The notes below the pieces were generated by a model that was not told the DNA's origin, did no database searches, and worked only from the letters and a program-made list of their open reading frames with translations. Positions 187-64,000 of a DNA stretch of 64,000 nt are shown piece by piece. Numbering within the stretch: position 1 is the stretch's first letter; every line of letters begins with the position of its first letter. The translations under genes and the position numbers were made by a program. Origin of the DNA: Alphaproteobacteria bacterium (GTDB taxonomy: Bacteria > Pseudomonadota > Alphaproteobacteria > MPNO01 > UBA830); contig OZ251539.1 in the NCBI GenBank assembly GCA_965243135.1, positions 2,208,001-2,272,000 of the forward strand, in the 5' to 3' direction.

Positions 187-429
187 GGCGCTCGGCCCGC
201 TTCGAAGGCCGGCACCTGAAACGCCGGCGCCGGACGTCCCTCGGAACGCGTCGACCCGGCGTCGGAAACTCGGGAACGGAATCGCCGGACAGAGGTTCGT
301 CAGCTGCGTTCCGCGCCGGGTCCCGGGCGCTTCTTGCGCACGTTTCCCGGTTCTCAAGGAGACGCTCTCCACCTGGCTCCGGCGGACGGGCGCAACCGGC
401 AAGGCTGTCGCCGGCCCGCAGGCGGCCGA
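187..429. repeat. Dispersed ~230-bp repeat, copy 1 (other copies ~2263-2739 and ~4381-4590)
   Basis: gcgctcggcccgcttcgaaggccgg...ggctccggcggacgggcg recurs almost verbatim at the other two loci. Confidence 0.9.
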
Positions 430-564
430 GCGCCCTCGCGCCGGTCGTTGCGAGGCCGAGCCGCAGCATGCGCGCCGGGGCGTTTTCGGCAAGCGACGCG
501 ACTGCGGCGGCGGAACGACGACCGCGCTTTCAGGAGGGGGACCTCCGCGAAACGACCGCGCGGC

Positions 565-712
565 AACGCCGCCGCGCGCCCGGAGGGACGGCCGCCGGGG
601 AACAAGTCACGCGACGCTCCCTTGAAACGCCGCCGCGCGCCCGGAGGGACGTCGGTCCGCGCCCACGCCAGCGCCTGCCCAGCGGCAACGCCGCCGCGCG
701 CCTGGAGGGACG
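565..712. repeat. Three 26-bp direct repeats with exact 61-bp period and two unique 35-bp spacers
   Basis: AACGCCGCCGCGCGCCYGGAGGGACG at 565-590, 626-651 and 687-712; degenerate copy near 514. Confidence 0.85.
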
Positions 713-750
713 GCTAGAATCGCGCCACGTCCGGAGGTTTGAAATTAGGG

Positions 751-780
751 TTAACTTCCCCCCCCCCCCCCGGCTATACT
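751..780 (+). promoter_or_regulatory. Putative sigma70 promoter with a poly-C14 tract in the -35/-10 spacer
   Basis: TTAACT (751-756), 18-bp spacer containing C14 (758-771), TATACT (775-780); ends 32 bp before the ATG at 813, with a purine-rich RBS (aggaaagg). Confidence 0.55.
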
Positions 781-812
781 CATCTCCGAAACTTCAGGAA
801 AGGGTATTCGTT

Positions 813-1199
813 ATGACAGACGCGGCAATGCCCAGCCCGGACCGCATGCTCGACGCGTACCGGAAGGTGATCCCCTTCGCGCAGGCCTATCGCGAGGACG
901 CGGAGTTCCGCTCCCGGGTGGACGAGGATCCGAAGTCCGTCATGACCGAGCATTACTTCGACGTGCCGCCCGGCGTGGAAGTGCGCATTACGGAAGACAC
1001 GGACGACACCTTCCACTTCGTCCTGCCGCCCGACCCGAACGTCGCCCTGTCGGACGAAGCGCTCGGCATGGTCGCCGGCGGCAAGTCGGCGAGCACGATC
1101 GGAAGCGCCGGCTCCGCCAGTACGGTAAGCACCGTATGCACCACCGCGAGCTGCGCGGCAAGCGCCAGCTCCCTGGGCTCCGCGGGCACCTCGGGATAA
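813..1199 (+). CDS. NHLP-leader (nitrile hydratase-like) RiPP precursor 1
   Basis: Leader motifs AYREDAEFRSRVDEDPKSV...VPPGVEVRITEDTDDTFHFVLPPDP...LSDEALGMVAGG with a double-Gly cleavage site, then core KSASTIGSAGSASTVSTVCTTASCAASASSLGSAGTSG. Confidence 0.88.
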   Translation: MTDAAMPSPDRMLDAYRKVIPFAQAYREDAEFRSRVDEDPKSVMTEHYFDVPPGVEVRITEDTDDTFHFVLPPDPNVALSDEALGMVAGGKSASTIGSAGSASTVSTVCTTASCAASASSLGSAGTSG

Positions 1200-1261
1200 G
1201 CCGGGAGCCTCGGCGGCCGACCGCTCGACTCGTTGTCCGCAATCAAGAGGAGGATCATACC

Positions 1262-1657
1262 GTGGAATTCACTGACATGACGCCCGAGGCAGTGCGGATG
1301 TACCAATCCAACTTCGCCTCGTTCAGATCGTTGTCCGATCGCTACTGGGAGGACGAGACCCTGCGCGGGCGGATCGACGCCGGGGACGTGAGAGACTTGC
1401 TCCCCGACCTCGGGATCGAGGTCTCTTCCGGCACCGACGTCCGAATCGTGGCCGACAGCGCCGATACGCGCTACCTCGTCCTGCCGCCCGACCCGAACGT
1501 CCCCCTGTCGGACGAGACGCTCGGCATGGTCGCCGGCGGCGGCAAGACCGCCAGCTCCGCCGGAACGGTCGGGACGGCGAGCACCATGGCCTGCTCGTCC
1601 GTGCCGTCTTCGGCCAGTTCCGCCGGCACGGCGGGATCGGTCGGCACCGCCTCATAA
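1262..1657 (+). CDS. NHLP-leader RiPP precursor 2
   Basis: GTG start after GAGGAGG; YLVLPPDPNVPLSDETLGMVAGG followed by core GKTASSAGTVGTASTMACSSVPSSASSAGTAGSVGTAS. Confidence 0.88.
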   Translation: MEFTDMTPEAVRMYQSNFASFRSLSDRYWEDETLRGRIDAGDVRDLLPDLGIEVSSGTDVRIVADSADTRYLVLPPDPNVPLSDETLGMVAGGGKTASSAGTVGTASTMACSSVPSSASSAGTAGSVGTAS

Positions 1658-1671
1658 GCAGGAACTTGATC

Positions 1672-2031
1672 ATGGAAATTCATGCGAGCGACTACTTGAC
1701 GAAAGGAACCTACCTGAAGGACGTTCTCGATCCGGGATTTCGAGAACAGATGCAGGAGGCTCCAAACGAGGCCTTGACGTCATGGGGCATAGATCTCCCC
1801 CCCGACGTCGATGTCCGCGTTCATGTGAACACGGACGACACCTTTTATCTGGCATTCCCCCCGGACCCGAACGTCGCCCTGTCGGACGAGGCGCTGGGCA
1901 TGGTCGCTGGCGGCAAGACGGCGAGCACGATCGGAAGCGCCGGTTCCGCCAGTACGTTGGGATCCATACCCAGCACCGCCAGCACCGGGGGAAGCGCGTC
2001 GTCGATGGCATCTTTGGCCTGCGCGAGTTAA
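1672..2031 (+). CDS. NHLP-leader RiPP precursor 3
   Basis: DPGFREQMQEAPNEAL...LPPDVDVRVHVNTDDTFYLAFPPDPNVALSDEALGMVAGG followed by core KTASTIGSAGSASTLGSIPSTASTGGSASSMASLACAS. Confidence 0.88.
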   Translation: MEIHASDYLTKGTYLKDVLDPGFREQMQEAPNEALTSWGIDLPPDVDVRVHVNTDDTFYLAFPPDPNVALSDEALGMVAGGKTASTIGSAGSASTLGSIPSTASTGGSASSMASLACAS

Positions 2032-2119
2032 GCGCAGGATCTGCCTCCTCCTTTCTCCAGGCGCCGCTCAGCGGGCGGCTCCTGGGCGCTCGGGCGTCGG
2101 GAAAAGAGCGCGGCGGTTT

Positions 2120-2739
2120 AACGAGCAGTACGTCGTCGCGACCGCGAAGGACATGCCGCGGGACGCGCTCCACCTCCGCCACGCGCGCTACCGGGCGCGG
2201 CCGGATTCGCGGCGGCTCGCCGACCCCAACCCGTTCGCGCTGCGGAAGCGGGCTGCTGCCGGCGGCGCTCGGCCCGCTTCCAGCAATCCCCGCTAAGGCG
2301 GCCGCATGTCTGGAAGGTGCGCCGAGAAGGCGAAATTACCAATGGACAAGCCGCCGCGACATAAGAAAATCCTTCATTCGATGGCAAATCGCGCCGAATT
2401 ATCCAGAAAAATCTACGAAAAATTTTTCTGAAACCCCATATTTTCCAAGGATTAGAGCCTTAGCGGGAATTGCTGGCCCGCTTCGAAGGCCGGCGCCTGA
2501 AACGTCGGCGCCGGACGTCCCTCGGAACGCGTCGACCCGGCGTCGGAAACTCAGGAACGGAATCGCCGGGCGGAGGTTCGCGAGCTGCGTTCCGCGCCGG
2601 GTCCCGGGCGCTTCTTGCACGCGTTTCCCGGTTCTCGAGGAGACGCTCTCCGCCTGGCTCCGGCGGACGGGCGAAGCTGGCAAGGCTGTCGCCGGGCTGC
2701 AGCGGCCTGCGCTCTGCGCGTTGGCCCGCAGGCGGCCGA
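2120..2739. repeat. Repeat copy 2: coupling-protein-like tail plus the ~230-bp repeat, interrupted by a MITE
   Basis: Matches 4243-4590 and 187-429; encodes EQYVVATAKDMPRDALHLRHARY...RRLADPNPF. Confidence 0.85.
2281..2475. mobile_element. 195-bp MITE derived from the ISNCY-type element
   Basis: 19-bp TIRs CAGCAAT(C/T)CCCGCTAAGGC; 9-bp TSD GCCCGCTTC (2272-2280 / 2476-2484); right end matches the end of the IS at 10485-12133. Confidence 0.92.
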
Positions 2740-2774
2740 CCGCTCGACTCGTTGTCCGCAAGGAGGATCGTACC

Positions 2775-2846
2775 ATGGAATATACCGACATGACGCCCGA
2801 GGCAGTGCGGAAGTACCAATCGCCTCGTTCAGATCGTTGTCCGATC
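2775..2846 (+). pseudogene. Truncated duplicate of the 5' end of NHLP precursor 2
   Basis: 2731-2846 copies 1212-1340 (RBS, MEYTDMTPEAVRKYQS) with small deletions. Confidence 0.85.
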
Positions 2847-4180: not shown

Positions 4181-4590
4181 ATGATGTCGACCGTGAAGGA
4201 ACGGCTGGTGACGCCGGACGACCTCATGACCATGGGACCCGCGAGCAATACGTCGTCGCAACCGCGAAGGACATGCCGCGGAACGCGATCCACCTCCGCC
4301 ACGCGCGCTAACTGGGCGCGGCCGGATTCGTGGCGGCTCGCCGACCCCAACCCGTTCGCGCTGTGGAAGCGGGCTGCTGTCGGCGCTCGGCCCGCTTCGA
4401 AGGCCGGTGCCTGAAACGTCGGCGCCGGACGTCCCTCGGAACGCCTTGACCCGGCGTCGGAAACTCGGGAACGGAATCGCCGGGCAGAGGTTTGCGAGCT
4501 GCGTTCCGCGCCGGGTTCCGGGCGCTTCTTGCACGCGCTTCCCGGTTCTCGAGGAGACGCTCTCCACCTGGCTCCGGCGGACGGGCGAAG
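4181..4590 (+). repeat. Repeat copy 3: relic C-terminus of a TraG/VirD4-like coupling protein plus the ~230-bp repeat
   Basis: MMSTVKERLVTPDDLMTMGP.EQYVVATAKDMPR...LADPNPF resembles coupling-protein C-termini (inference); frameshifted. Confidence 0.6.
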
Positions 4591-4607
4591 CCGCCGGAAC
4601 GCCGCCA

Positions 4608-4745
4608 GGGGTCGTCCGCCTCCTCCTCGACCGCGATGCCACGGGCCGGCGCGCGGCGATCACGCTCGAAGCCCGGGCGCTCGCCCAAGACCCGCCGCCG
4701 TCGTCCTCGCCCCCGAGGACGGCGACTTCAACGACGACCTCGCCA
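4608..4745 (+). pseudogene. Toprim-domain C-terminal relic
   Basis: LLLDRDATGRRAA...VLAPEDGDFNDDL parallels VQDRDAAGERA...PQGKDANDDL at ~60460-60590. Confidence 0.5.
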
Positions 4746-8354: not shown

Positions 8355-8512
8355 GTGACATCCGATGCGACGCTCGGCCCCGACGAGCAGTATGTCGCCG
8401 CGACTGTGAAAGATTTGCTGCGGGACGCTACTCTCCGCCATGAGCGATATTGGGCGCTGCCGGATTCACGACGACTCGCCGATCCCAACCCGTTCGCGCT
8501 GCTTTCCGGATG
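8355..8512 (+). repeat. Diverged further copy of the coupling-protein-tail relic
   Basis: GPDEQYVAATVKDLLRDA.LRHERYWALPDSRRLADPNPFAL matches 2120-2245 and 4230-4365. Confidence 0.7.
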
Positions 8513-8633
8513 CGTCGCTAACGCGGCGCGGGATTGCCCCGGCATCTTGACTCGCCGACCGGCCCTCCAGACAATGCCCTCGTGCTGCCGATAGCCTGCA
8601 TTGCGCTCAAGAGTTGATAGGGGAACCCAAAAA

Positions 8634-9329
8634 ATGGACAACGATCCTAAATGGAAAATATATGAGCGTGCCGTCGCCTGGTTTACGATGGAAAACGCGA
8701 GTATAAATTCCTCCATCACCCCAAATGCGTTTCTTGTCGGCTCGATCAGCGGAACCAAGAGACAGATAGACATTCTCATTCAGCTTGATTGGCAAGATCG
8801 TGAAACCACGCGTCGTATCATTATCGACACCAAGCTGAGGAAACGAAAGCTCGACATAGGGGACGTTGAGCAATTCGAGGGATTGATGAAAGATGTAGAA
8901 GCGCATCATGGAAAACTAGTTTGTACCAACGGATGGACGGCGGCAGCAGAAGAACGCGCAGGAAAAAACATCGATCTTGAAATCATATCGTTCGAAGAAG
9001 TCCTGTCAGATTCACATTCGATTATCTTGTGTCCACACTGCGAAAGTCGCCCCCACGGGGGAGTAGTGTTTTTTTGGGAACCACCGCTTCCATTTATATT
9101 TTTCGGTCTAGAAGTTGCGACGCTAGTTTTTCTTGGAAAGTGCGATGGATGTCGCAGATTTGCCGTCTCGTGTGGCGGATGCGGGGAAATCCTTATCGTC
9201 GACAATTCGCGAGAATTCACTTGTGGGTGCGAATACATTTATTATGCTGACGAAAAAGACGGCGAACGGATGCTTTGGGTTAAATCTCCGATGGGCGAGA
9301 TACCAATCGATGACTGTCCACTAACGTGA
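8634..9329 (+). CDS. Mrr-like (PD-(D/E)xK) restriction endonuclease with C-terminal Zn-binding motifs
   Basis: WKIYE..V, GSISGTKRQIDIL, IIIDTK, DIGDVEQF, GKLVCTNGWT; C-terminal CPHC, CDGC, CGGC and CGC. Confidence 0.8.
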   Translation: MDNDPKWKIYERAVAWFTMENASINSSITPNAFLVGSISGTKRQIDILIQLDWQDRETTRRIIIDTKLRKRKLDIGDVEQFEGLMKDVEAHHGKLVCTNGWTAAAEERAGKNIDLEIISFEEVLSDSHSIILCPHCESRPHGGVVFFWEPPLPFIFFGLEVATLVFLGKCDGCRRFAVSCGGCGEILIVDNSREFTCGCEYIYYADEKDGERMLWVKSPMGEIPIDDCPLT

Positions 9330-10484
9330 ACTTAATATTTCCCCGGGTATCCGCTAACCGTCTCTCACGTCATCGGCTCGATCAAACCAGGACTGGTCGT
9401 CTCTGACGGTTTCTCTCAGATCCGGGCGGCTGAGGTAGCCGGCCAACCTGCGAAAGTACCTTGTCATGGCCTTCAGATCGTTGAGGTCGCTTGCAGCGAT
9501 TTCAATCACTTCGCATCCCGTGTTGTTTCTCAAAAAATCGCGGATCAAGCGGTCGCGTTCCGCAGTCTCCGGGTTTCCATGCAGGTGTCGGCTTAGTCCG
9601 TCAAGATAAATGCAGACTCCCTCGTCTTCCTCGTCGCCAGGGTAGAATACGTCGGGCGTCGTCGTGCCGATCGCCCGGTCAAGACGGATCTGACGGCCGC
9701 GCACGCCTTCTTCGAAACCGGCCGCCAGAAGAAGCTGACGGAGCGTTCGTTCCGCCTGGTTCACGGGATACGACCCTTCCCGCGGTTCCTCGGAAGGCTG
9801 CCTGGACGGGATATCGTGCGATAATTCGAGAGCCGCCCCATAAGCCTCAAGCCGCAGGAGCGCCTCCCCCCGGTTCAAATGCTTGTGATAGTAGGCGTTG
9901 CGGAAGGTCTGGAGACAATCCACGCACGAACTCTCGCAAACGGAAGGGCAATCCTCCACCACTTCCCGCGCGACGTTGACCACCTCGCCGAAACGTTCCA
10001 CGATCTGGGAGAGAAGGCCCGATCCTCCGGGCATCGGATCCCAGAGCAGGGCGTCGACCTCGTCGCGCTCCACGTACCCGACAACCAGGATCTGCAGATC
10101 GTCCATGTGCATGTCGAGAACCCGGGCCGCGGCGAAGCGAAGCGCCTCGAGCACGCTGAAAGCTACCGTCTGGTTTTCGCATGCCGGCAGCGACAGGACA
10201 TCCGCGACCACGTCTGCATAAAAACCGACCGGTGCGCATCTCTTTCCGCAACGCTCCTCGTGAGAGGCGACGAACCGGTCGTATTGGACACCCGAAGCAA
10301 GCGGAGAGACGCTCTGGCCGCACACCGTGCACAGGGGGTATCCAAGACGGGCGAAACTCCCGATAGCGGAAGTTGCGCCGACATTGACCAACCGCAGGCG
10401 AACGCCGCGTCTGAGATGCAGGCTTTGTCCTCCCCAGTCGAAGGCGGTCCCCCCGTTGTGCTGGCCGCGCTCCAGACCGTGAAC

Positions 10485-12133
10485 CAGAAATTCCCGCTAA
10501 GGTGGCCGCCCTTTGCGAAAGGCGCGTCGAGATAGCGTCGTTACCGAGGGACCAGCCGCCGCGACGCACCTTCCCCGCTTCGGCTTGGTGCCGACTTAGC
10601 CTTGACCATCCTGTTTCCCCTGAAAAACTTGCTTTAGCACATTCGGTCACGGTGCCAGGTCAGGAGGTGTCGTAGGGAATTCCCTCTGCTTTCCGGTATC
10701 CAAACGCGATCATTCGGTAGAGTGTTTCCCAGTCCTTCAAGAAGTATTCGAGAAACAATCCCCGCGCCTTTTCCCAGAAGTAAATGGGCCGCTTGGCCTT
10801 CGTTTGCGCCTGTTGGAACAGTTTGCAACATCGCTGTTGAATCTGGTCAATCAGGAACGCCAGCATCATCAGGAACGCAAAGACCGTCGACAGATTCTTG
10901 TTACCGTGACCGAAGTTGTGCTCAAAGCAGTAGCCTTGGTTCTTCAGGGTGTTGAAAGTTTCGTTCTCGATCTTCCAGCGCGCCCGCCCGGTGCGCATCA
11001 ACTCCATCAGGTTCCCTTCGTCAATTGGCAGATCCGTGACCCAGGAGAAACGTTGTTTCTTGCCGTTTGGGAGCTTCTCCCAGTATTCGAGAAAGTTCAC
11101 TTTGAGGTCGAAGTGCGTATCGTTCAGAGGCACTCCGTTAAGATACCGGAATTCGTGCCGTATGTTGTCACCGTCCGTGAACTCCCGGCGCTCCACGGAC
11201 GGCGCGTTGTTGACCCACTCGAACAGGAACTTGTGGTCGCCGGGCTTCGCCCCCAGTATGAAACGCATGTCTAACTCCTTGAGAAGATTGGCATGCGGTC
11301 CGTTCGAGGCCAGCCCATCTTCCAACACAACCAGCTTCAGGTGCGGGTGTTCGCGACGCACATCTTTCAGAAGCCGTTTCGCTGCGTTGCGTTCGCAATC
11401 GTTCTTTTTTGCGCCGTCTTCCTTCAGGATCGGTTCCGGTGCAAACGGAAAAACCTCCTTTTGTTCCGGATGCACCAGAACGGCTCCCAACATCTGGTGG
11501 TAGTAGGTAATCGTACCGTCGCGGTGGTGTTTCTCGCAGCAATTTTTACAGTGCACCTTGTCCGACGAGAAGTATCCCGTTCCATCGATCGAAAGAGCGT
11601 AATGCCCGTTCAGACAAGTGTATTCTTCCAATCCCTTGCCTCGTTGCAAAACCTGGAACATCTTCGTGAAACAACGCCGCAATTGCCGCGGACAGACTTC
11701 GTCAAGCCGTTCGCGCATCGCAGTGTCCGACGGCACGCGCTTGACGCCGTATAAGGTCGCGAGGTTGTGCCGAACCACTTCGTCGGCGTGCGCGGCCTCG
11801 TCGAATTGCAGAAGCGACGCATACTTCATACCGAACACCGCTAGACCCGACATCAGACAGTCCGTCTGGTTCAGCCCCCTGCTCGCGATCGGATCTTCGA
11901 TACGGTCGAAACAAGCTCGCACTTCCTTCAGCAATCCCGGAGCGCTGAGCGTCTTGCGCATGCCTGGCATTCTGGCCATTTTGGTTACAATCCCGCCTCG
12001 CCTTCGGACCACTTTCCAGAGAAAAATGCTCCGCTCGAAGGCAAATAGCCCCGAATCACCTCGAAAAGTCCACGAAAGACTTTTTTCCGGCCCCATATTT
12101 TTCAAGGGTTTCGAGCCTTAGCGGGAATTGCTG
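10485..12133 (-). mobile_element. ISNCY-type IS (1649 bp), apparently intact
   Basis: TIRs CAGAAATTCCCGCTAAGG / CCTTAGCGGGAATTGCTG; 9-bp TSD ACCGTGAAC (10476-10484 / 12134-12142). Confidence 0.93.
10660..11979 (-). CDS. DDE transposase (ISNCY-type), 439 aa
   Basis: SIDGTGYF, KNDCERNAAKRL, EDGLASNGP, GRARWKIENETFNTLK. Confidence 0.9.
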   Translation of the reverse strand: MARMPGMRKTLSAPGLLKEVRACFDRIEDPIASRGLNQTDCLMSGLAVFGMKYASLLQFDEAAHADEVVRHNLATLYGVKRVPSDTAMRERLDEVCPRQLRRCFTKMFQVLQRGKGLEEYTCLNGHYALSIDGTGYFSSDKVHCKNCCEKHHRDGTITYYHQMLGAVLVHPEQKEVFPFAPEPILKEDGAKKNDCERNAAKRLLKDVRREHPHLKLVVLEDGLASNGPHANLLKELDMRFILGAKPGDHKFLFEWVNNAPSVERREFTDGDNIRHEFRYLNGVPLNDTHFDLKVNFLEYWEKLPNGKKQRFSWVTDLPIDEGNLMELMRTGRARWKIENETFNTLKNQGYCFEHNFGHGNKNLSTVFAFLMMLAFLIDQIQQRCCKLFQQAQTKAKRPIYFWEKARGLFLEYFLKDWETLYRMIAFGYRKAEGIPYDTS

Positions 12134-15100
12134 ACCGTGAACGGCCACTCCGAGCTGAAAGCGGAGTTCCTCCTCGTCGGAAATATGCGACCGATGGACC
12201 AGATCCACGTCGCAGACCGAAATGGTTCTCAAACGGCCGGCGCTCAATCCGGAGAGCTCCGTTCCGGCCTCGGTCTCCTTTACCGCCTGCCTTTCGGTCG
12301 ATACCTCGAAGACCGGCATGTCGACCCGTTCCTCGTCGACATTCAGATGGAAACGCCGCGGGACGAACCGGTGACCGTTCGCGTAAACGAGATTGCCCGG
12401 CACGTATTCCCGCAGCGCCAGACTCGGCGGCCGCGGCAACGCGAATTCCCCCACTCCGCTTTGCCAAAACGGGATCTCGGCCGTACCGAGGACCGAACCG
12501 ATCTCAAGCCCGTAACCGGGAAGGAATCCTTCCGCGGCGAGAACTCCAAAGGTGTAGGCATCCTCGTAGCCTTCGGCCTCGTGCCGCATGCGCCGCCTTG
12601 TCTCCTTGAGGCGTTTGACGAGGCGGTCGCAACGCCGGAACAGGGCATCGTCCTCGGGTTCAAGAGCGCCGCGCTTCTCGCGCAGAACGTTCAGCCGCCG
12701 GATCTGGGTCATGGCCCACGCCAGTCGCCGGCGCAATCGGGCGATTACGTTTTCGAGTTGGTCCACCATTCCGGCGACGTGGCCGCGCAACGCTTCCGGA
12801 CTCGTCACTTCCGCGTCGGCATCCGGCCAGTTGCGGGAAAACGCCTTCTCCATGTACGCGACAAGATCTTCGAGATCATGCTCGATCAATTTCCGCAGGG
12901 GCGATAAATCGAACGGCTCGGAACGGACGGCTTCGCCTTCGAACAGGTAGGCGCTTACCCGCGGCGGCAGGGCCTGGCCCAGCGCGGCCTCGATTCGCTC
13001 CCCGTCCGGGCGCGAGGGATCGTGCGCCCGTTGGTAAAGCCTGGTGATCGTTGCGGCGTGAACATGCTTGGCGACCATCAATTCGTTTCGCAGGTTGAAC
13101 GCGGGCGGGTCGACGCGGCCGGCCAGCATCTTGAGGGGCTCCGCGAAGTACGCGCGATCATGGGAAACGGAACGGCAATAGGCCAGGTCCACGGCCATGC
13201 GGTGACGCCGCCCGGCCCGTCCGGCCCGCTGCCAATAGTTGGCCGGGAGCGGGGGCACGTTGCGCATGAGCACCGCGTCGAGTTTGCCGATGTCCACGCC
13301 CAGTTCGAGCGTCGGCGTACAGACGAAGGCGTTGACGGCGTCCGATTCTCCCTTGAACAGGTTTTCGAGGCGTTCTCGCTCCTCGTTAGGGACCATCGCC
13401 GTGTGCTCCTCGGGGCGGAGCATCGAATAACCCTCGTCCAGAACCTGCAGGTCGTAGTTGTCCGGATCTTCCGGGACGAACTCGATTTCGCCTTCGCAGC
13501 GCCATGCGGGGCATTTCCGAAGGGGCGTTCGACGGACTGTGCGGCGCCGGCAACTCCTGCAACGCCAAACGCCCTGATTGCCGCGCAGGCGGAGCCGGTC
13601 CGCATCCACTTGGTAAACCCGGCTGACGCCCGACAGAGCTCTGCCCTTGGCTCCCTTGAGCCGAACGGGCTTGAGCACGCCGAACTCCGCGAGACAGCCG
13701 AACAACTCCTCAAGGAACTTTTCGGCGTTCTCCGGCAGTACGCCCCACTTCCTCGCCATCTGCCGGATCGTCGTATCGCCCCGGTCGCTGAACCACTGGG
13801 TCACGAGTTGAGGCTTTTCGTCGCGCTCGCGACGCAGCTTGGTCCCCGTGGGGTTGCCGAAGCGAGGCAGGTACCCCTGCTGTATCTCGAGGTCGCCTTC
13901 CAACCAATACCTGGAGAAAATCTCCTGTTCCGGGTCGTGCAGGACGCGCTTGCGGCGGAGGTAATCGAGCAGGCTGGCCACTCCTTCGCGGAATTCCTCG
14001 GGAGCGAGAGCCAATCGATCCGCCGTCGCCCGGGATAACGCGGCGGTCAGGCCCTCGTATTCGACCTTCATGCGCCCCCAGGGCTCGAGCCCCACCGGCT
14101 GACGGGCGGACTGGGTTACTTCGCGCAGCACCTGAATGCGCAGGAATTTTCGGCGTTCCTGCCCGTGCCTTCCGCCCCCGCCTTCCTTGCGGACGACCTG
14201 CCATACTTCGGGCACGAGCGCGCGCGACAGCGTTTCGTCCCGCTCCAGAACGTCGTCCATGTACAGGGCGAGGTCACCGACGGAAACCGGACCATCCTTC
14301 ATTCCCTCGGCCATCAGGGAACGCAAGCGGTAGCGGCGGGCGTGGTCCTTCATCCACCCCGCCTGGAAAGCGGCATCCTGCCGGTTGTCGCAAAAGACCA
14401 GCAGCCGGGGCCGTTCGGAGTGGTGCACCATGTCCTGGGCGAGAATGTGCACGTCGGCCACGTGAGTTGCGCGAACCGGCCGGGCCGGCTCCCGGTACCG
14501 CCCGTTGATCCTCCTTCCGGTCGCCCCGCATGAAAGACAACTTGAGAGGAAGCCCGGGTTGTCCTTGTTTTGCCGCACCGCGAACAATTCGACGCTTTCG
14601 CCCGTCCGTCCGCATCCGCGGCACCGGGTCACGGCGTCGGGATGAGCCGTTCCGCAGTGACGGCAAAAGTAAAGGGGGCTGGTGCGGGCGTGCCGGTCGA
14701 TGTCCTCGTCGGCGCTGCCCCCGACGATCCTGTCCGTCAGGACGACGCGGCGGCCGCCATGGGTTTCCTCCAGGGGCTTCCAGTAGGTCGCCTCGCCGAT
14801 CGCCTCGCCGCCGCCCGGCGCCTTGCCGTTGAATTCGAAGTCCTTGAGGAAGGCGACGAAATAGTGCTGACCGCAGGTGGTGCACGTCGTCACCGGAAAA
14901 TGCGCGTGCGCGTTCTCTTCGGCGGCCGCCTCGTCTTCCGCGGCCAGCCACAGCCTGGGGCCGTTGCCCTCCTCGGGAAAGCTCGCCACCGCTCCGCCGA
15001 TGCCCCTCACGAAGCCGTGCAGCACCGGACGAAGAAGCGGCCTGCCCGCCGCGCTCGCCGCCGCTCCGAGAGTCAGCCAGCAGAGGATCTCGGCTTCGTC

Positions 15101-17821
15101 CACGGACCGGCCGATAACGGGCTCGAGTTCCGGGGGCAGCTCGTTCAGCGCGCGCGGAGAAGCCAGCGCCTCGTTGAGCCGATAGACAAGTTCGTTGCCG
15201 GACAAGGCGGCGTACAGCGCGTCCTGCCAATTGCCGGCCGGAAGCGGCGCGCCGGACAGGTCTTCGAGCGCGCCGCCGACGGCCGTTCCCGGATCGGTCT
15301 CGTCGTCCACGGCGCGGACGCAACGGGCGAGGAGTTCGGCCGGGTCGAGCGCCGGAGCCGGCGGCAGAGAGCGGTCTTCCGTCCAGATCTCGGGTTCGTA
15401 GGACTCGTTCACCGTAACGACTTCGTCCTTCGGGACGCCGAAGAACCGCGCCGCGAAATCCCGCGCGGCGTCGGGACTGGACCGGTCCGCGATGGTCGCC
15501 GATGTCGCGACGCAGACCGTTTCGTTCGCCCCGCAAAAGGTTCTCAGCCGGCGGATCAGGCAGGCCGTCTCGGCCCCCTGGGCGCCGGTGAACGTGTGAG
15601 CTTCGTCGAAGACGAGGAAATCGAGGCGGGCGTCGGCGAACAGGCCGATATCCTGCTGCCGGGTCAGCAACAACTCCAGTTGCTTGACGTTGGTCAGGAG
15701 GACGCGGGGCTGCCGGCCCGGCGCGCGCATGATCTCGCGGGAGCAGACCTCCTCCGGCGGATAGACGGTTTCGCTGCGTTTTTCTTTCCTCACCCTGGCG
15801 AGCTCGGCCTCGTAATCGGCCTGCGACGCCCCGGCAGGCAGGCGGATGCCGGCCACCTGTCTCTCCTTTTCCGGCGTCTTGCCCACGTACATCCCGAACG
15901 GAATGCCCGTTCCGGCGAGAAGGGAGCGCAAACGGCCGAGCTGATCCTCGGCCAGGGCGTTCATCGGGTAGACGATCACCGCGCTGACGCCCGGAGCGGT
16001 TTCCCCGTCGCGCAAATCGAGGCACTTGCTGATGATCGGGTAGAGAAAGGACTCGGTCTTGCCCGAACCCGTTCCGGTGGACACCAGCGTCGTTTTTCCG
16101 GAGCGGATGGCCCGGACCGCCTCCTCCTGATGGCCGTACAGTCGGGAGATTTCCGCCGGAATTCGCTGGCGCATATGAGGATGGAATACTCCGTCGCGAA
16201 CCAGTTCGTCGATGGCGGCGCCGAGACGGAAGGAACGCGAGAGGCTGACATAGGGGCCCTTGAGCAGAGGCGAGTCGCGGGTCGAATCGAGGGAGAGCAG
16301 GCGATGCATCTGAGTGCGCATGTCCTCGTCGACGAAGGGGTAGGCCGTCAGCTGGTATCGCAGAAAACTGCGGACGACTTTTTCCGTAAAAACGACGGGG
16401 TTCAGGGCCATGGGCGTTCCTAATCGAAAAGCGTTTTCCCGGCGCCCGTTCGGAAGGCTGGAGAGAAAGCTGCTTCTGCCGGAGCCGTCAGAGGATCTTT
16501 CTCACGCCCCGAGGTCATTGCGAGCAACTGCGCGTAGCCTTCCTCGCCCAACAGATTGCGGGCGTGCAAACGGCACTCCCTCCAGGACTCCTCGGGGTCC
16601 TGGCCGAGCTGCCAGTCGAAAAAGCGCGGACCGAGGCTATCTCCGACCTTCCGGACTTCCCTCGCGCGTTCGTCGCGGCCGAGACCGTAATCCGCCAGGC
16701 GCAGGGATTCGGGAAGCATCCAGCCGTCGCCGTCGTTTTGCCCGCAGAATGCGGCGATACCCTCGTCGACGTCTCCACGTTCGGAAATCTTCCCTTGGAG
16801 ATCGTCGAACGCTACGAGCGTCAGAACGGTGTGGCGCAGCTCGGGAGGCTGGTCCTTGTTGACTCGCCAGAATCCCTTCGCCGCCAATTCGTCGGCCTTC
16901 GACAGCCTGTCCGCTTCGCCGACGGGCAAGTCGCAATCCCGGAGAATGTAACGCAGATCCTCGACGGAAAGTCCGAAAAGCACCGCAACGATGGCGTCCA
17001 GCATGCAATTCAGCCTCAGTCTCTCGTGCGGCGTCGAAGCCCATTGCTCCCTCCAGGCGGAATCCCGCTCCCGCAGATAGATCCAGAGCGGCGAGAACAC
17101 CTCGTGATTCGCCGACATCCGGGCGACCAATCGCGTCAGAATTAACCTGGTTTCCGCCGTGAGCGTTCGCGAATCGAGCAACGGAAACTCCTCGACAACG
17201 GCATAGTTGAGATGAAGGTCTCCGATGCGCAACCGCGCCACGAAATCGAGGACGAACGAGCCCAGCTGGGCTTGAAGGGGCAAGACGTCGGGCATGTGGC
17301 CCGGCGCCAGGCACGGGGCGGCATGGACCGCCGGCGTCGGCGGAGTGAGTGCGCTGACCATCGTTCGCCGGTTAACCGCCTTCGAGATGTCCTTGAAAAG
17401 CAGTCGCGCCAACCAGGGCGGGCGGTCTTCGGTTCGGTCCCGGAAATCGAGTTCGCTCATCAAGTATTCCGGCTCTATGGTCTTCTTCGACGGATCGATC
17501 GGCTTCCATACTGCGCTCCGTCCCTTGCCCCGAACCCATCCCGAGCTGGAGAAATCGAACAGGCTGAACACCTTGGCGCCGTACACGGGCACCGCCGTTC
17601 CTTCGATCGCTTCTTCATCGATCCAGTGCTCGCCGTCTCGCGAGAAAACGATTCCTTCGGCATTATTCGCGCGTCCGGCGGGCATCGTGCCGGACAAAGC
17701 CTTCCAATTGCCCTTGATCCAGCGGTTGTACTCGTCGGGACGGTATCCCTCCTCCTCCCATTTTGGTCGCGGAGGGAAAAGTTTCGAGTCGCCAGTGGTA
17801 TCGAACTCCCTCGTATAACTT

Positions 17822-18063
17822 CAGACCTCCTGACATCGCGTAAATTCAATTTGCCAGCAGGGGGCCCTCGAACGCCAGTTTCAGCCCGGTGCCGAGGTAG
17901 GCATGGCCTTCGCGAGTGACCATGGCACAAAGTTCCCGAAGCGCCGTGTTGAAGCGGGATTGGGACACGGCGCTCTCCAGAAAGTGGTACATTCTAATTT
18001 ACGACGAACTGGGGAAAAATCAAGCAAAATCTTCCAGTTACGCATACCATGTCAGGAGGTCTG
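17822..18063. mobile_element. 242-bp MITE of unidentified family inside the MTase gene
   Basis: 15-bp perfect TIR CAGACCTCCTGACAT; 5-bp TSD AACTT (17817-17821 / 18064-18068); excision restores WNVSYTREFDTTGDSKLFPPRPKW. Confidence 0.9.
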
Positions 18064-20261
18064 AACTTACGTTCCAGCTTCCGGGACCATTTTCGCCGAG
18101 GAGCGCGGAATTTCCGTAGATCTTTTCGAGCAATTCCAGATCCCACGAGGACTCGATCTCCAGGATGGACTGCGAACGCGGAGAAAGGCGGTCTATCTGA
18201 TCCCGGGCGTAATCGGCGGCGCAAAGTTCCGGCCGCTCCCAATCCTCGAGGCGACGCCGCATGAACGCCGTCCGAACGGTTTGCGTCTTTCCGCCTTTTT
18301 CGGCGATGACTGCATTAAATTTCATAGCTCTGTGGATGTCGAAAATACCGTCGCGATTCTCGAAGCCGAATATCCATTCCCACTTCCAACGATTAAGGAA
18401 AAGCTGGCGAAGATCGCCGGTGCCATGGTCGGAGTAGAGGCCCGAGGGCACGATGAATCCGATGCGCCCTCCGTCCTTCAGCAAGGCATGCGCTTGCTCG
18501 AGGAACAGCTTGTACCGGTTGAGGTCGGCGGACCCTTGGTGCCGGAAGGGGCGTCCACCGCGAACGTAGCCCGCGCTCTTCGAACGGCTGCGCCGCCAGT
18601 GCGCATGCAATTCCCCGTTCCGAAGGCCCTTCACGATCGTAAAGCGCCTGTCGCTTTTCGCGTTCATGGAGGGGTCGCCGAAGGCGCTGTCGCGGTGCTT
18701 CACGAAGTTGGACAACGCACGAAAACCGGCGTTGTACGTCAACCATTCCCTTTCGATCACTTCGTCTTTTTTGAAATAGAGAGTTTGATACCGCAGCGCC
18801 TCCTGCTTGCCGTAGGAGGGATATAGCGGGTCTCTGTTCGAGAAGAATTCCCTGGAATACGGTTTCGCGGTATCCCACGGCGGATTGCCGAGCATGGCGT
18901 CGAAGCCGCTTTTTCCGTCCCGGAAAACGTCTGGGAACTCGATCTCCCAATGAAAAAATCGCTCGCGGGACGCTACCCGGGCGGCAATCTCCCAAGTCGC
19001 CTCCGGCGGATCGGCGAGCGTCGACGGAAGCGGCGCGGCGGCGAGTTCGTCAGCGGGCCAGAACCAGCAGGCGCACCAAAGGTCCATCGCCTTCGAGAGC
19101 GTGCGGTAGGCGTCGGAATCGAGGATGTCGTCGTGATATGCCCGGGCGCGCTCGTCCGTACGGTGGACGGGCAGGGCGTGAAGGTGGGTCAGCGTGTCGA
19201 GCGCGTTGTCGTGAACGGAAATCGCTTTTTCCTGCAGGTCTTCCGAAAACAGCGTGGGGCCCGACAGGAAGACTGCGAGATCGGGCGTCAGCTTGTCTTT
19301 CACGAACGCCTTTATGGCCCTGGCGCGCACATCTTTCTCGAAATGGACCCCGTTCGAATGGGTCTTGTCGCCGCCCTCCCGGTTTTTCCAGGCCATGACC
19401 GGATAGTGCTGAAACTGGTCGAACCACGCGCCGACGAGGCTGTTGCCGCACTTGATCTTGTGATCGAGGAAAGAAAATGGCAGCGCGCGATCCATGGTCT
19501 CGACCCAAAGCGCCAGCTTGCAAAGCTCGACGGCCAGCGGATCGAGATCGACGCCGTAGAGGCAACGCTCGACCACGTGCCTGCGGAGCACGGCCTTCAG
19601 CCGCGGTTCGAAGAGATCGTCGTCCGGCGGACAAGGCAGCAGTTCCTCGCAAAGGCCTTCGCCGACGTCGCCGGTCAACGGCCCGACAACGGAACTGTCT
19701 CCGCGGGGAGCGATCCTTCCATGGTGGTGGAGCGATGCGTACAGGGCTTCGGTCAGAAACCGCAACGCCGCCAGGGGGAACGAGCCGGAACCGCACGCCG
19801 GGTCGCAGATCTTCAAATCGAGGATTTCTTCCGGGAGCCTCGGAATCCACTCGTCGGTCGCGGCCGCCCCGGCGGCTACCGGTTCGTAAGCCAGCGGCAG
19901 AAGAGTGCGCTGCACGGTGGGAACCGCGAGGCCGGGCCGGGTATAGAACGAGCCGCTGCCCTTGCGCGTTCCGCCCCAGCGCACCAGATACCACTCGCCG
20001 GGCAAAACGACGCGAACGATCAGCTGACGGGCTTTTCGGAAAACGGTTTCTTCATACTGCAAACGCTTCTCGGGGGTCATCTTTCCGCGCGGTTTCCGGA
20101 CGAGGCCGCCGGCCCCGACTGCGCGAACGGCCCAGGCTTCGGCTCGCAGGCGGGCGTTGTGCCGCTCGTCGCCTTCCGGGATTTCCGCACTCTCGTTCGA
20201 CTCTTCCTCTGCTTCTCCTTCTACATCTTCCTCCTCGACCTGCGGTTCACCAAACGCCCTA

Positions 20262-20277
20262 CCCCCCCCCCCCCCCC
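20262..20277. repeat. C16 homopolymer (G16 on the coding strand) at the MTase frameshift
   Basis: Sixteen consecutive C; the reading frame breaks exactly here. Confidence 0.9.
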
Positions 20278-21683
20278 GTCATCGCTGGTATCCTTCAGGG
20301 CCTTCAACAGGTTGTTGAGCGCCGAATCGTCCATCTCCTCCAGCCGGCTGAGCGGCAGCGCGGGATGGTTCCCGACCGCGAGGAAAATGATCGGGTTGCC
20401 GGGCGGCGCGGTCCGCAACTCGAAATCGAGCAAGCCCTCGTAAAGGATGCCGATGTACTCGCTGGAGAGGTCGGAAAAATCCACCGGCGCCGGAATCCAG
20501 GTGCGCGACCAGCCTTGGCGAACCTTTATCCGCGTCCGCGTGATCCGCTCCAGAATGCGATGGACCTCGGCGTCGGCCATCACCTCCCGGTCGAAGCAGG
20601 CGGTCTCGAAAACCGAAAGCGCGCGGGAGAGCCCGTCGGAGGAATCGGGTTCGCCCGAGGCGAAAAGCGCGCCGCCGTAGGCTGGAACGGGCAAGTCCGG
20701 ATGGTGCGACCCGTCGCGAATCAGACGAAAGAGGGCGAGCACCCGCGGCCAGGCGCTCCACGACCGGGCGAGGCGGTTTCCGCCGCGAGCCGCGGTCTTT
20801 TCGAGGGACTCCAGCAAGCCGGTCAGGCCGTAGCCGCTGTGATAGAGGTCGTTGTCCCGCGGCAGCAAATCGCGCGATTCGGCAAAGAGCACGATCACCA
20901 TCCGCATGACGACGCGCACGGCGGCCCGATAGATCTCGGCCGGGTCGGCGCAGCGTTCTTTCAGGGCTTGTCCGTGGCTCCGCACGAGCGCCTCGACGGC
21001 TTCCCGGACGCGCTCGCCCAAGACCTGCGAGAGTTCCGCCTGTCCCTTGCGGCTGTCGAGAATCGCCTGGAGCAACGGGGCCGGGCCGTCGCTGCCGACC
21101 GGGATCCACGCGCCGGGGGACAGCAGAGTGCGCAGGGCCGCGACCTGGTCCGACAGCTTCCCCTCTTCGAACCACAGGTCCGCGTCCCATTCGCACCAGG
21201 CATCGAAATCGAGGCCGGCGAAAACGAGGCGCCACTGCCGGCCGTTGGTGACGACGGCCAGCTTCTCGCGCCCGCCCCGCAACCACTGGAGAACGCGGCT
21301 CGTCGCCCTGCGGCCGCGGCCGACGCCCACGCGTTTCTCGCGGTCGAGAAAGACGGGCAGAACGCCGCCCCGGTCGCCGGTCCACAGATGGTCGGGTTTG
21401 ATCCTCCCGCCGGCAACGGCGGCGCGGCCCTGCTCGGCGGGGACGCCGCTTCCCCGCCGCCAGCCGCTTGCAGTAAATCCGCAGACTCTCTCGAGCGCGA
21501 ACGCGACGAATTCCGGCGTTGACGCGCGGTCGTCGAGCATCACGGCGCTTCGCCGGCGCAATTCGCTCTCGACGGCCGGCGGCAGGGCGTCCGGCGCGAA
21601 ACGCGCGATCTCCTGAAGCCTTTGAGGATCGAGAAGCAGGCCCCCGTGGCGCAGCCGTTCCCAACCTGGCAATTCCGTCCGGT

Positions 21684-24600
21684 TCAAGGCGCTTCTCCGG
21701 CAAGGCGGAATTCCACGACGACCGGAAAGACCTGCGCCTCGCCCGTCATCGAAAAGCGATTGGGCAGAACGCGGGCCAGAATTCGCTCGCGCTCCTTTTC
21801 GAGTTGTCCGCGCACCTCCTCGAAATTGCGTCGCCGCCGGGCGCGTTCCGCCTCCTTTTCCTCTATGGAACGGTCGATGCGTCCCAGGCGGTTCGCCTCG
21901 TCGAAGAGAGTTCCTTGGCGCTTCTCCTCCTTCAGCCTCTCGATCTCGCGTTCGAGTCTGGCGAGGGTGGTTTCCGCGATCAACGCCGAGACCTCGCCCT
22001 GACGGCTGCGGTAACGCTCGTCCTCCTCGCGCCGCGCGCGGTCTCCGTCGCGCTCCAATTGAGTTCGCAGGCCGGCGGTCAGCGATGCCGCATGCCGGCG
22101 AACGAAAGCTTTGAGCTCGGGTTCCACTTCGCAGAAAATTTCCTGGGCCCGCCGCTGCGGTTCCTCGCCCCGGGCAGGCTGCGCTCCGCGGAGTTCGCGG
22201 GCAGGGCAGTGCGGGAGGGGACCGCCGAGCGCGCCTCCGGTGACCGGAAAGCGTATCGTTCTCACCCAGTGGTGATAGGTTTCGCGCAGATCGTTGACGG
22301 CCAGTTCCTCCAGACTGAGAAGCACGGCGGCATCGACGCCCGCCGGCAGTTCTCCGATGCTTACCGTCCAGCGGGATACTTCGTCGCCGGTTCCCGGAAA
22401 CCGGCGGCGGCTGAGCGAAACGAGTGCTTTCTGCAGCATCGGGTGGGACAAGTGGATCAGGCGCGTGTCGGGACGCGGCGCGAAAATCTTCCGCCTGCCG
22501 GCATCTTCAAGAAAAGGTTCCACGCCGAAAGCCAGCCGTACCACCGGCCCCTTGCTCCTCCCGTCGCCCGTAGTCGCGCGCAGCGAGTCGTCGATAACGT
22601 CGCTCCATTCCGGCAGGCCGGGATTGACGATCCGGCAGGTGCCGTCATGGTCCGAGCGGTCGAGTTGCGGCCGGCCTGCGCGTATCGCCATCGCGGCTTC
22701 GAGGGTGTCGCGTACGGCGGCGGGGTCGAGATCCACCTCGGCGGCGACGTTGCGCAGATCCCGGATGCCCGCCTCCGCGCTTGCCGCATCGGTCGCAACG
22801 GCGGAATCGGCGTCGAGCGCGGCCCGACCGCGGGCCAGTTCGACGCTCCGCTCGAGATGGTGCTGGACCTGAACGAGTTCCTCGCCTTCGACCAGACGCC
22901 GATGCGCCGCTTCGTCGAACAGCTCGTTGACCGACCCCAGATCCTCGCGGATTTCGTCGGACTTGCGGATGACGTGCGCCAGAAACTGGAGATCCTGATC
23001 CTGGTCGCTGACGAAATGGTGAATCGTCACGTCGCGCGCCTGGCCGTGGCGGTCCAGCCGCCCGTTCCGCTGCTCCAGCCTGGACGGGTTCCAGGGACAG
23101 TCGTAGTGAAGCATGTACCGTGCGGTGCGCTGAAGGTTGAGGCCCTCGGCCGCCGCGTCCGTGGCGACGAGTATCCGCACCTCGCGGGAGGGATCGTTGA
23201 AGGCGGCCTTCACGAGGTCGCGCTGGAATTCGTCCATGCCGCCGAAGAGCGTGAGGATTCGTTCCTCCTGGTAGCGCTCGCGGAGGCGCCGCACTATGTA
23301 GTCGAGCGTCGTCTTGTACTCCGTGAAGACGACAAGCCGTTCGTCGTCGCGCCAGCCGCCGCCTCGCCGGAGCAACTTTTCCACGAGGCCGCACAAGGCG
23401 TCGAACCGGGCGTCTTCCGCCGGGTCGCGGTCTTCCGCGAGGCCCAGCCGGTCCACCGCGAGGTCGATCTCGTCGATCTCCCGCGCAAGCTCCGTTCCGA
23501 ACGACTTGAGCCATGCGCCGACCACGGTCGAGGCCGTGGACTCGCGCAACTGGGTCTCGCGGTCGTCGGGGATTTCCTGGTGCAGGGCGCGCGCTGCGGC
23601 TACCACTTCGCTGTCCGCCGCAGGCTGGGTCTGCTCCAGACCGTCCTTGCACCTGCGCCACGACTCGGCGAACGCAACGGGGCAACTGAGCAGCCGCTTG
23701 CCGAGAACTTCGATCGCGAAACTGCCCGACCGCCGCCGCGCATTCTCTCCGCGGGCGATCTGCGACCGCACCCCGGTCCGGAAAGCGGCGAACGCCCGGC
23801 TCACCGACGCTTCGGCAGGGGACAGACTCAGCTCGACCGCCCGCGGCGGCATGCGCGTGCAGAATTTGGGCGGATCGGTGCGGTCGTTGATCTCGCTCTT
23901 GAGGCGCCGGAGAACCACCTGCTTGATGCGCTCTTTCTGCGCGGGATTCAGTTCGCCGGTCTGGCTGAATCGCAGCGGATCCAGAATCTCCAGAAGCCCC
24001 GTGAAGGAACGCGTATGGCCGTTGTGCGGGGTGGCGCTGAGAAAGATGCGATGCTCGAATTGCGGAGCGACGAGGCGCAGCATGCGGCAAAGATCGCTGT
24101 CGTCGCCGAACGGCGAGGGCATGAGGTTGTGGCACTCGTCGACGATCAGGAGATCCCAGGGCAGATGCGGCGACCCCTCCGGCGTTCGGCAGGCGGCGAG
24201 GAATTGTTCGAGGACGTCGTCCTGCCGCAGGTAATGATAGGAGGAGATGATGCGGCTGTACGATCGCCAGGGATTGGCGTCGAGACCGAGCCGCTTTCGC
24301 AGCTTGTCGGTCTCGGAACGGTCGACGAGGTTGAAGTGAAGAGAGAACTTGTCCCACAGCTCGTCCCGCTGCCATTGCAGGCGCAGCGAAGCCGGCGTCA
24401 GCACCAGCACCCGCTGGATCCGCCGGCGGATCAGAAGTTCGCTCAGGATCAGACCGGCCTCGACGGTCTTCCCCAGGCCGACGTCGTCGGCGATGAGCAG
24501 GTTGACGCGCGGCATGCGCAACGCCTTGAGCAACGGCACGAGCTGGTAATCCTCGACCTGGATGGCCCCGTGGAACGGGCTCGACACCGGCAACCGGTCG

Positions 24601-29851: not shown

Positions 29852-30468
29852 TTCATCGCTCCATGAACGGATTTTCTGCGTATCGGTGCGGCGCAAGCGC
29901 ATTCGCGAGCACGCGGCCCTCGCCGGCACGGCCTCGGAGATCGACAGCCGGTCCAGTACGCGGCTAACCTCTTTGCACGCGCTCTCCCGGTCGCTCGGCA
30001 TTCTGGCCTCCGCCTCTGCGGCCGCTTCGAAATGCGCCGCCACCCGCTCGACCTGATCGGCGTCGCGTTCCCAAGCCGCATAACGCTTGTTCAGGACCGC
30101 ATCGAGTTGTTCCGCGGATACCGTCCGGGCGATCCACCGGACTTTTCCTTTGGAGATTTCCATGTGCGTGCCTGGGTTGCGGAGACTGTTCATCAACCCC
30201 GATTTCGGAACGCCTTCGGGTTCTCCGCCGCGACCCAGGCTTTCCGTCGCCGAGCGGCCTGAGCCTCCTGCTGCCCCTTGCCGCTGCCGTGCCGCTTGCG
30301 CTCGACGGCGATAACCCGCTTGTTCCCTCGGCGTCATGGCGTTCGCCTCCTGTGCGCTCTCCGCCTCGGCGTTGCATGCCTCGCGCAGTTGTTCGGAACG
30401 CCTCACGTTCGCGCTGCATTCGGGAGTCTTGGTGATTCCACGTAAGCGTTCGGTCGTGGGGTGACGGT

Positions 30469-63965: not shown

Positions 63966-64000
63966 GTTCGACGCTTCCGCGGTTCCGTCAGCAGGCACCG

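Follow-up and report, generated by a model that had tools for sequence, protein, structure and literature searches.

A 64,000-nucleotide stretch of an alphaproteobacterial chromosome (assembly GCA_965243135.1, contig OZ251539.1), here called the window, carries near its start three consecutive genes, p1, p2 and p3, for precursors of peptides made by ribosomes and modified after translation (RiPPs) with NHLP leaders. The genome is a single contig of 6.10 Mb with 65% G+C, of which the window is positions 2208001-2272000. Alignments show the trio, together with the promoter-like region before it, to be a diverged copy of a trio that heads a group of YcaO, SagB-type dehydrogenase and DUF4135 genes 1.57 Mb away. 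The encoded peptides are probably substrates of a dehydrazole-type proteusin pathway, that is, one introducing azoles and dehydroalanines, with its enzymes encoded at that distant site in the same chromosome, and the window trio would most likely serve as a spare precursor set matured in trans. The trio is a set of new examples of a class in print since 2023, not a stand-alone system.

Three precursors with one leader end and one core length

The three open reading frames (ORFs) occupy window positions 813-2031, are intact and lie on the + strand. p1 (813-1199) encodes 128 aa, with a leader of 90 aa (813-1082) and a core of 38 aa (1083-1196); p2 (1262-1657) encodes 131 aa, with a leader of 93 aa (1262-1540) and a core of 38 aa (1541-1654); and p3 (1672-2031) encodes 119 aa, with a leader of 81 aa (1672-1914) and a core of 38 aa (1915-2028). 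A stop codon follows each core. The start of p2 is a GTG with AGAGGAGG 7 nt upstream, and there is an in-frame ATG at 1277. The leaders of p1, p2 and p3 end in LPPDPNVALSDEALGMVAGG, LPPDPNVPLSDETLGMVAGG and FPPDPNVALSDEALGMVAGG, respectively, and so share the end PPDPNV(A/P)LSDE(A/T)LGMVAGG, in which VAGG is the double-glycine site. TIGR03793, the NHLP leader model, matches all three (E 2.5e-14, 7.9e-9 and 1.3e-12; 52.9, 35.3 and 47.4 bits), its curated cut-off of 50.9 bits being passed by p1 only; the Pfam family NHase_alpha also gives weak matches to each. A proline-rich stretch, an L-x4-L motif and a double glycine have been described for proteusin leaders (PMC10858898, in the part of that report drawn on here), and the window leaders show the same three features.

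Counted from the first GG, the core is exactly 38 residues long in every case. Ser, Thr, Gly and Ala together make up 31, 31 and 30 of these residues in p1, p2 and p3 (about 80%), and Cys 2, 1 and 1. Ser, Thr and Cys account for 18-20 of the 38 residues of each core, which has five Ser-(Ser/Thr/Cys) pairs. The Ser/Thr/Cys positions recur with a period of three: autocorrelation at lag 3 exceeds chance in all three cores (p = 0.005, 0.03 and 0.008 for p1, p2 and p3; 5000 shuffles per core), and the same shuffles give no enrichment at lags 1, 2, 4 or 5. In the p1 core, Ser or Thr stands at positions 2, 5, 8, 11, 14, 17, 20 and 23 and then at 27, 30, 33 and 36; this is the register of nostatin A, discussed below, and it gives at most 12 candidate azole positions, four of them preceded by Ser. 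Cores also matched the NCBIfam thiocillin family RiPP entry below its cut-off (E 0.007 and 0.0002); we took these matches as compositional and dropped the idea of a thiopeptide. The picture given by the initial annotation, of NHLP-leader precursors with a shared leader end and Ser/Thr/Gly/Ala cores of 38 residues built from triads with one or two Cys, is thus borne out by the ORFs, the composition, the lag-3 shuffles and the TIGR03793 search.

A paralogous trio heads an enzyme cluster

When the three window proteins were searched against the genome with tblastn, a second trio was found at 3781462-3782681, along with about a dozen other NHLP paralogues. The duplicated cassette, consisting of the promoter region and the three genes, spans window positions 442-2122 (+ strand). 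By blastn, window 695-2122 matches genome 3781345-3782783 with 92.1% identity over 1441 columns, and window 442-591 extends the same match to 3781203-3781363 at 85.8%. The duplicated segment stops about 70 nt before the YcaO start of the cluster. At the protein level (tblastn) the window and cluster copies are 92% identical for p1 (3781462-3781845), 95% for p2 (3781911-3782300) and 81.5% for p3 (3782325-3782681), p1 differing at 10 residues and p3 at 22.

Directly downstream of the cluster trio, and oriented like it, are the YcaO, SagB-type dehydrogenase and DUF4135 genes, which occupy 3782853-3789143. The first encodes a 778-aa fused cyclodehydratase that matches TIGR03882 and TIGR03604, both above cut-off. 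The second encodes a 456-aa SagB-type dehydrogenase, in which Pfam recognizes Nitroreductase and ThcOx domains; a homologue that is positive for TIGR03605 shares 88% identity with it. The third encodes an 849-aa DUF4135 protein, and tblastn confirms that the dehydrogenase and the DUF4135 protein are products of two separate genes. In the following 27 kb are a PoyD-like radical-SAM gene, more precursors, two Asp/Asn beta-hydroxylase (PF05118) homologues, an exporter and a TolC-like protein. The PoyD-like protein scores 315.8 bits against a cut-off of 325, and its gene has its own adjacent precursor (L002:1692-2069). The exporter, at 3.794-3.801 Mb, is the NHLP set of HlyD, ABC1 (with the C39 peptidase) and ABC2, all above cut-off (TIGR03794, 267.9 bits; TIGR03796, 1020.7; TIGR03797, 843.3). 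A second fused YcaO gene (L003:661-3030), 97% identical to the first (L001:12853-15186) over 778 residues, lies inverted relative to it at the opposite end of the roughly 30-kb cluster. The genome totals are two YcaO genes, one DUF4135 gene and one PoyD-like gene, all at 3.78-3.82 Mb.

What, then, surrounds the window trio? A Pfam scan of the 46 window ORFs, taken from a GC3-based ORF picker of our own making rather than a gene caller, found no RiPP enzyme in the 64 kb, only defence and mobile-element families being matched, and the YcaO, DUF4135, PoyD-like and C39 peptidase genes found in whole-genome searches all lie elsewhere. The 20-kb stretch that precedes base 1 holds genes for EF-G, L7/L12, L10, L1, NusG, SecE, EF-Tu (tuf) and a SpoU methylase together with tRNA-Trp, tRNA-Gly and tRNA-Tyr, and no maturase genes. 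The absence of a local maturase, noted at the outset from the letters alone, therefore stands and extends upstream. The trio had also been described as an orphan; this is true of its neighborhood, but the trio is not independent, being a 92%-identical copy of the one heading the cluster. The further proposal of a mobile precursor library matured in trans fares similarly. TIGR03793 matches 22 stretches of the genome at E <= 0.01, 15 of them outside the 3.78-3.82 Mb cluster, and the genome encodes matching maturases; the search for maturases and more precursors that the initial annotation recommended thus yielded YcaO, SagB, DUF4135, PoyD-like and exporter genes as well as the 22 NHLP stretches. 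Mobility is suggested only, by the flanking repeats and the island context described below.

A member of a DUF4135 clade with a half-size cyclase-like domain

The DUF4135 domain covers residues 162-520 of the 849-aa protein. An AlphaFold model of the whole protein (pLDDT 92.2, from an alignment of 38 sequences) has LicM2 (E 3.6e-27) and CylM (2.6e-24) as its top Foldseek matches, and its last 195 or so residues align to LanCL1 with probability 1.00 over about half that fold. There is no LANC_like Pfam match in the protein at E up to 1. A genome search with PF05147 (LanC) also gave no match, but it was equally empty in its 14 control genomes. TIGR03897 matches positions 78-704 of 932 with 253.6 bits, below the cut-off of 304. 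With one Cys only, the C-terminal region lacks a Cys-Cys-His zinc site. As modeled, the protein fits a DUF4135 domain followed by a zinc-free cyclase-like domain. It belongs to a clade of proteins of about 830-900 residues, and of the 120 homologues listed, 95 match it almost end to end with at least 47% identity. The Chryseobacterium protein introduced below is absent from the homologue search and from the member lists of four matches, the nearest named relative being a Kouleothrix 'LanM'.

Comparison with known azole-dehydroalanine systems

The dehydrazoles were introduced with carnazolamide of Chryseobacterium carnipullorum by Pei, Zhu and Nair in 2023 (PMC10676384). The carnazolamide genes encode a precursor (CcaA), a YcaO protein (CcaB), a dehydrogenase (CcaC), a radical-SAM epimerase (CcaD) and a DUF4135-cyclase protein (CcaM). 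The NHLP precursor is heterocyclised by the YcaO/dehydrogenase pair and is then dehydrated by the protein with DUF4135 and a zinc-free cyclase domain; CcaM works without the leader and dehydrates a Ser only where an azole follows it (PMC10676384). The same report lists about 50 dehydrazole clusters, mostly from Proteobacteria and Actinobacteria, among them one that combines two YcaO genes with a single dehydratase and several precursors (PMC10676384), as does the cluster found here. The system described here has in common with carnazolamide the NHLP leader, a core rich in Ser, Thr and Cys, and YcaO, dehydrogenase, PoyD-like epimerase and DUF4135 dehydratase without zinc ligands; the Ser-(Ser/Thr/Cys) pairs of the window cores fit the rule that Ser is dehydrated before an azole. 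A YcaO gene and an azoline dehydrogenase gene lie beside the DUF4135 gene downstream of the cluster trio, and for the window trio the same enzymes are available in trans, at 1.57 Mb. There are also differences. The window precursors are unlinked from the enzymes, their cores are Cys-poor and have 38 residues as against 30, the YcaO protein is fused to a leader-binding domain, and no S-methyltransferase was seen here. Leader removal would be expected to fall to the C39 peptidase/ABC exporter, after GG, whereas in carnazolamide an S8 protease is used.

Nostatin A, reported in 2024 from Nostoc sp. CCALA 1144, is a second point of reference. As set out in the part of the report used here, its genes encode a precursor (NstC), a cyclodehydratase (NstD), an oxidase (NstE), a PoyD-like epimerase (NstF) as well as a LanM-like protein (NstG), and the product consists of repeated tripeptides of dehydroalanine or dehydrobutyrine (Dha/Dhb), azole and unmodified residue (PMC11583998). 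To that extent nostatin A is, like the present system, an NHLP proteusin with the same four enzyme types, and the period of three in the window cores (for example S-T-I, S-T-V, S-C-A and S-S-L) resembles its blocks; the triads of the window cores would be explained by such Dha/Dhb-azole-Xaa blocks. Going by the same source, it differs in its 30-residue core with more Cys, in having its precursor encoded in the cluster, and in a sactionine bridge and a methylated Pro that come from an extra radical-SAM enzyme. The conserved length, at first taken to suggest a fixed scaffold or a three-component product, and the triads turn out to be family traits of dehydrazoles and of nostatin A and do not point to anything new.

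Other systems share single features. The present precursors share with the srp proteusins (SrpE, with the YcaO protein SrpC and the brominase SrpI) the proline-rich stretch and L-x4-L of their NHLP leaders, a YcaO enzyme and a sponge-associated setting; we set identity with that group aside, the srp core being a short LCCCW, its hallmark enzyme a brominase, and no DUF4135 dehydratase being described in the portion of the report cited (PMC10858898). The predicted pairing of azoles and dehydro-amino acids on cores rich in Ser, Thr and Cys is also the likeness to goadsporin, spongiicolazolicins and thiopeptides, which have short leaders and depend on split dehydratases of the glutamyl-tRNA-dependent LanB type (PMC10676384).

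In layout, the many scattered precursors with long conserved leaders and one enzyme set that would act in trans are like the prochlorosins. There, many dispersed ProcA precursors with long conserved leaders are served in trans by one ProcM; the leaders are of the Nif11 type, ProcM is a true LanM with a zinc cyclase, and the products have lanthionine rings, not azoles.

By analogy with these systems the window precursors would be matured as follows. The leader, through its proline-rich stretch, L-x4-L and GG, would dock the precursor on the YcaO enzyme, which with the dehydrogenase would turn the middle Ser, Thr or Cys of each triad into an oxazole, methyloxazole or thiazole. The DUF4135 enzyme, predicted to be leader-independent, would then dehydrate Ser directly before an azole, and the PoyD-like epimerase, the only one in the genome, may change the configuration of some residues. 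Finally, the NHLP ABC exporter, through its C39 peptidase domain, would cut after GG and export a 38-residue product. Having the extra trio would raise the precursor dosage and, through p3, provide a variant core.

Several points weigh against this assignment and against a role for the window copy. With only one or two Cys per core, most heterocycles would need Ser or Thr. CcaM has 1015 aa and a cyclase domain of about 370 residues, compared with 849 aa and a half-size cyclase-like domain of some 195 residues in the dehydratase here, whose azole-dependent behavior would be an extrapolation. In the p3 core, window and cluster copies differ by 14 nonsynonymous and 2 synonymous changes (small numbers), an excess that could be due to relaxed selection rather than diversification. 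The trio sits among repeats and near a truncated p2-type relic 700 nt downstream. Lastly, the sequencing runs in which this stretch occurs, 11 from 5 studies (sponge metagenome, metagenome and coded organisms), include none of RNA.

If the assignment is right, p1, p2 and p3 are three natural substrates (six with their paralogues) for a barely studied RiPP class, and that class can, like the prochlorosins, keep precursor genes far from the enzymes. Genome mining that looks only beside a YcaO or DUF4135 gene will miss such precursors. The half-size cyclase-like domain could help to define a minimal azole-dependent dehydratase. The finding leaves the understanding of such systems unchanged.

Is the window copy a spare set or a decaying one?

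The most serious alternative, which we nevertheless consider unlikely, is that repeat-mediated rearrangement left the window trio behind as a silent or decaying duplicate, roleless and turning into pseudogenes. It starts from the setting. A 228-nt repeat, D1, is present as three direct copies within 4.6 kb and has only local matches: copy 1 at 194-421 forms the upstream flank of the trio and copy 2 at 2475-2702 (93%) its downstream flank (strand not assigned for either), and copy 3, a direct copy at 85%, lies at 4389-4616. A second element, at 2280-2475 and about 195 nt long, is repeated dozens of times across the genome; it and D1 both resemble small mobile or repetitive extragenic palindromic (REP)-like elements. 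Further families of dispersed repeats also flank the trio. The relic is at 2761-2821 (+ strand) and consists of the ribosome-binding site and the first 16 or so codons of a p2-type gene, with an ATG where p2 has GTG, followed by unrelated sequence; it (family D6) is 90% identical to 1248-1308, and the wider pair 2731-2855 and 1212-1349 matches at 84%. The repeats and the truncated relic beside the trio indicate that decay does occur at this site, and the position at the edge of a defence and insertion sequence (IS) island and the nonsynonymous excess in the p3 core are in keeping with such an origin.

The genes themselves argue otherwise. Nei-Gojobori counts with our own script (small numbers) gave synonymous divergence (dS) between the copies of 0.13, 0.08 and 0.17 for p1, p2 and p3, and ratios of nonsynonymous to synonymous divergence (dN/dS) of 0.28, 0.26 and 0.68, p1 and p2 differing mostly at synonymous sites. 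At this divergence all three frames are intact, and the window copy has kept its ribosome-binding sites and start contexts, the promoter hexamers, the recognition motif and the 38-residue core. A counterpart of p1 with 97% identity (P0001) is, moreover, found on another contig in a protein collection. We therefore prefer the reading of the window trio as a spare precursor set.

The putative promoter is a sigma-70-like match at 751-780 (+ strand), TTAACT and TATACT separated by 18 nt, with a run of 14 C at 758-771 in the spacer; it is a consensus match only, one of two promoter-like matches in the region where shuffles lead one to expect 0.2. No intrinsic-terminator-like site was found in window 400-2500. 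Both hexamers are kept in the cluster copy, in which the C run is shorter and the spacing 16 nt as against 18 in the window, and one contig from sequencing run X2 has one more C in the run. Such changes in length could make the promoter phase-variable. Reads of four runs gave only short contigs (60-509 nt, at least 96% identity), none of which spans the trio or its flanks.

This variation, with the separate clades of p1, p2 and p3 (see below) and the near-fixed core length of 38 residues, lies behind a more speculative idea, to which we give little credence: that the three cores together make up a single product of several components, built of rigid (X-azole-X) rods with a set length, the unlinked copy being a separately regulated and possibly phase-variable source of substrate. 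Were this so, precursor supply would be switched independently of the enzymes.

Other fates for the cores

Could the product instead be a D/L peptide in the style of polytheonamide, the cores being modified mainly by the PoyD-like epimerase and the Asp/Asn beta-hydroxylase homologues? The PoyD-like gene and the two PF05118 genes are in the cluster, and the cores are rich in small residues. We think this very improbable, because it is the YcaO, dehydrogenase and DUF4135 genes that lie immediately downstream of the paralogous trio in its orientation, because this order is the one conserved across genomes and the epimerase has its own precursor, and because Ser, Thr and Cys recur with a period of three, not two. 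The carnazolamide epimerase, too, acts last and on one residue (PMC10676384). That the precursors belong to prochlorosin-like class II lanthipeptides with thioether rings is scarcely credible: a LanM-like gene is present and NHLP leaders occur with some synthetases of class II lanthipeptides (PMC12537861, as far as the part cited goes), but the cores have only one or two Cys each, no LanC-like domain was detected in the genome (in a search also empty in control genomes) or in the DUF4135 protein, and this protein has a single C-terminal Cys, no zinc site and only a partial TIGR03897 match below cut-off.

Relatives and the age of the three types

A scan of genome contigs gave nine loci, from metagenome-assembled genomes labelled Alphaproteobacteria, Gammaproteobacteria, Acidobacteriota and Candidatus Porisulfidus; enzymes were scored in 56 of the 100 called ORFs of at least 140 aa. 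Each relative locus has 3-6 tandem precursors. In L005, L007 and L008 the order is precursors, fused YcaO, SagB-type dehydrogenase and LanM-like gene. L006, L010 and L012 have a YcaO gene and a LanM-like gene with no separate SagB among the ORFs scored, L012 also holding a PoyD-like gene; L009 ends after its YcaO gene, and L011 and L013 have no such enzyme among the ORFs scored. Core length was read from the 28 of 50 tblastn rows in which a full Ser/Thr-rich core is present, the other 22 being truncated, leader-only or of other core types. Exactly 38 residues are found in 17 of these 28, or in 23 of 34 when the six genes of this genome are included, within a range of 36-41.

In a tree of these 34 precursors (28 from relatives plus six of this genome) each window gene is nearest its cluster paralogue, the p1 pair (96/89) and the p2 pair (98/99) both being starred and the p3 pairing lacking resolution inside a starred clade of four rows. 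Each of the types p1, p2 and p3 has its own starred clade, in which genes of other genomes are included (99/98, four rows; 100/99, five rows; 95/98, four rows). The duplication thus took place within this lineage, and the three types are older. This conservation of the types as separate clades across genomes is the one observation in favor of the three-component product suggested by the initial annotation.

Whole-genome searches of five related genomes found 7-32 precursor-profile matches and one or two YcaO genes in each. In two of them, matches to the full profile including the core (G001, 943788-946040; G002, 3656242-3658273) lie roughly 0.6-1 Mb or more (circular) from any YcaO gene. Among 30 sampled relatives only four have a match, namely three of four other genomes of the genus and one of 12 of the same order but another family, so that the distribution is patchy.

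Some further observations concern rearrangement within the family. In L010, from a same-genus genome, the precursor at 717-1034 is duplicated across the cluster at 9432-9749, directly behind an IS1595-family transposase ORF (8497-9369). The precursor at L007:10028-10327 combines a leader nearest that of p3 with a core of the p1 type (...CTTASC...), a sequence that suggests recombination of leaders and cores within the family. Two other unlinked NHLP precursors of the present genome (3085111-3085410 and 4192398-4192697) encode identical proteins at a distance of 1.1 Mb from each other, pointing to a further recent precursor-gene duplication. Finally, a conserved leader-only NHLP-like ORF, ending in ...LLHIVLPAP(L/M/P)(K/R) and without the PPDPN-GG motif and core, lies beside YcaO clusters in three genomes (L003:3902-4156, genome 3813902-3814156; L008:10963-11241; L012:12330-12479).

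The neighboring defence island

In the island at whose edge the trio lies, the Pfam scan found DISARM-like DrmD and DrmC, a DruE-like helicase, Septu PtuA/PtuB, IS66 along with other transposases, and a Toprim primase. The DISARM-like locus (window 9354-31021, - strand throughout) comprises an MZB-domain ORF (9354-10391) beside the DruE-like helicase (12056-16411), DrmD (21684-24905, 651 bits), DrmC (28673-31021, 414 bits) and pieces of a DrmMI/type IIG methylase-nuclease. The last is spread over three successive ORFs (16420-17697, 18038-20080 and 20221-21687), which cover, in that order, positions 1151-1493, 435-1104 and 2-340 of one 1524-position model, so that the gene may be split or broken. 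The Septu pair, PtuB (61966-62736) and PtuA (62703-63998), ends within two bases of the window end.

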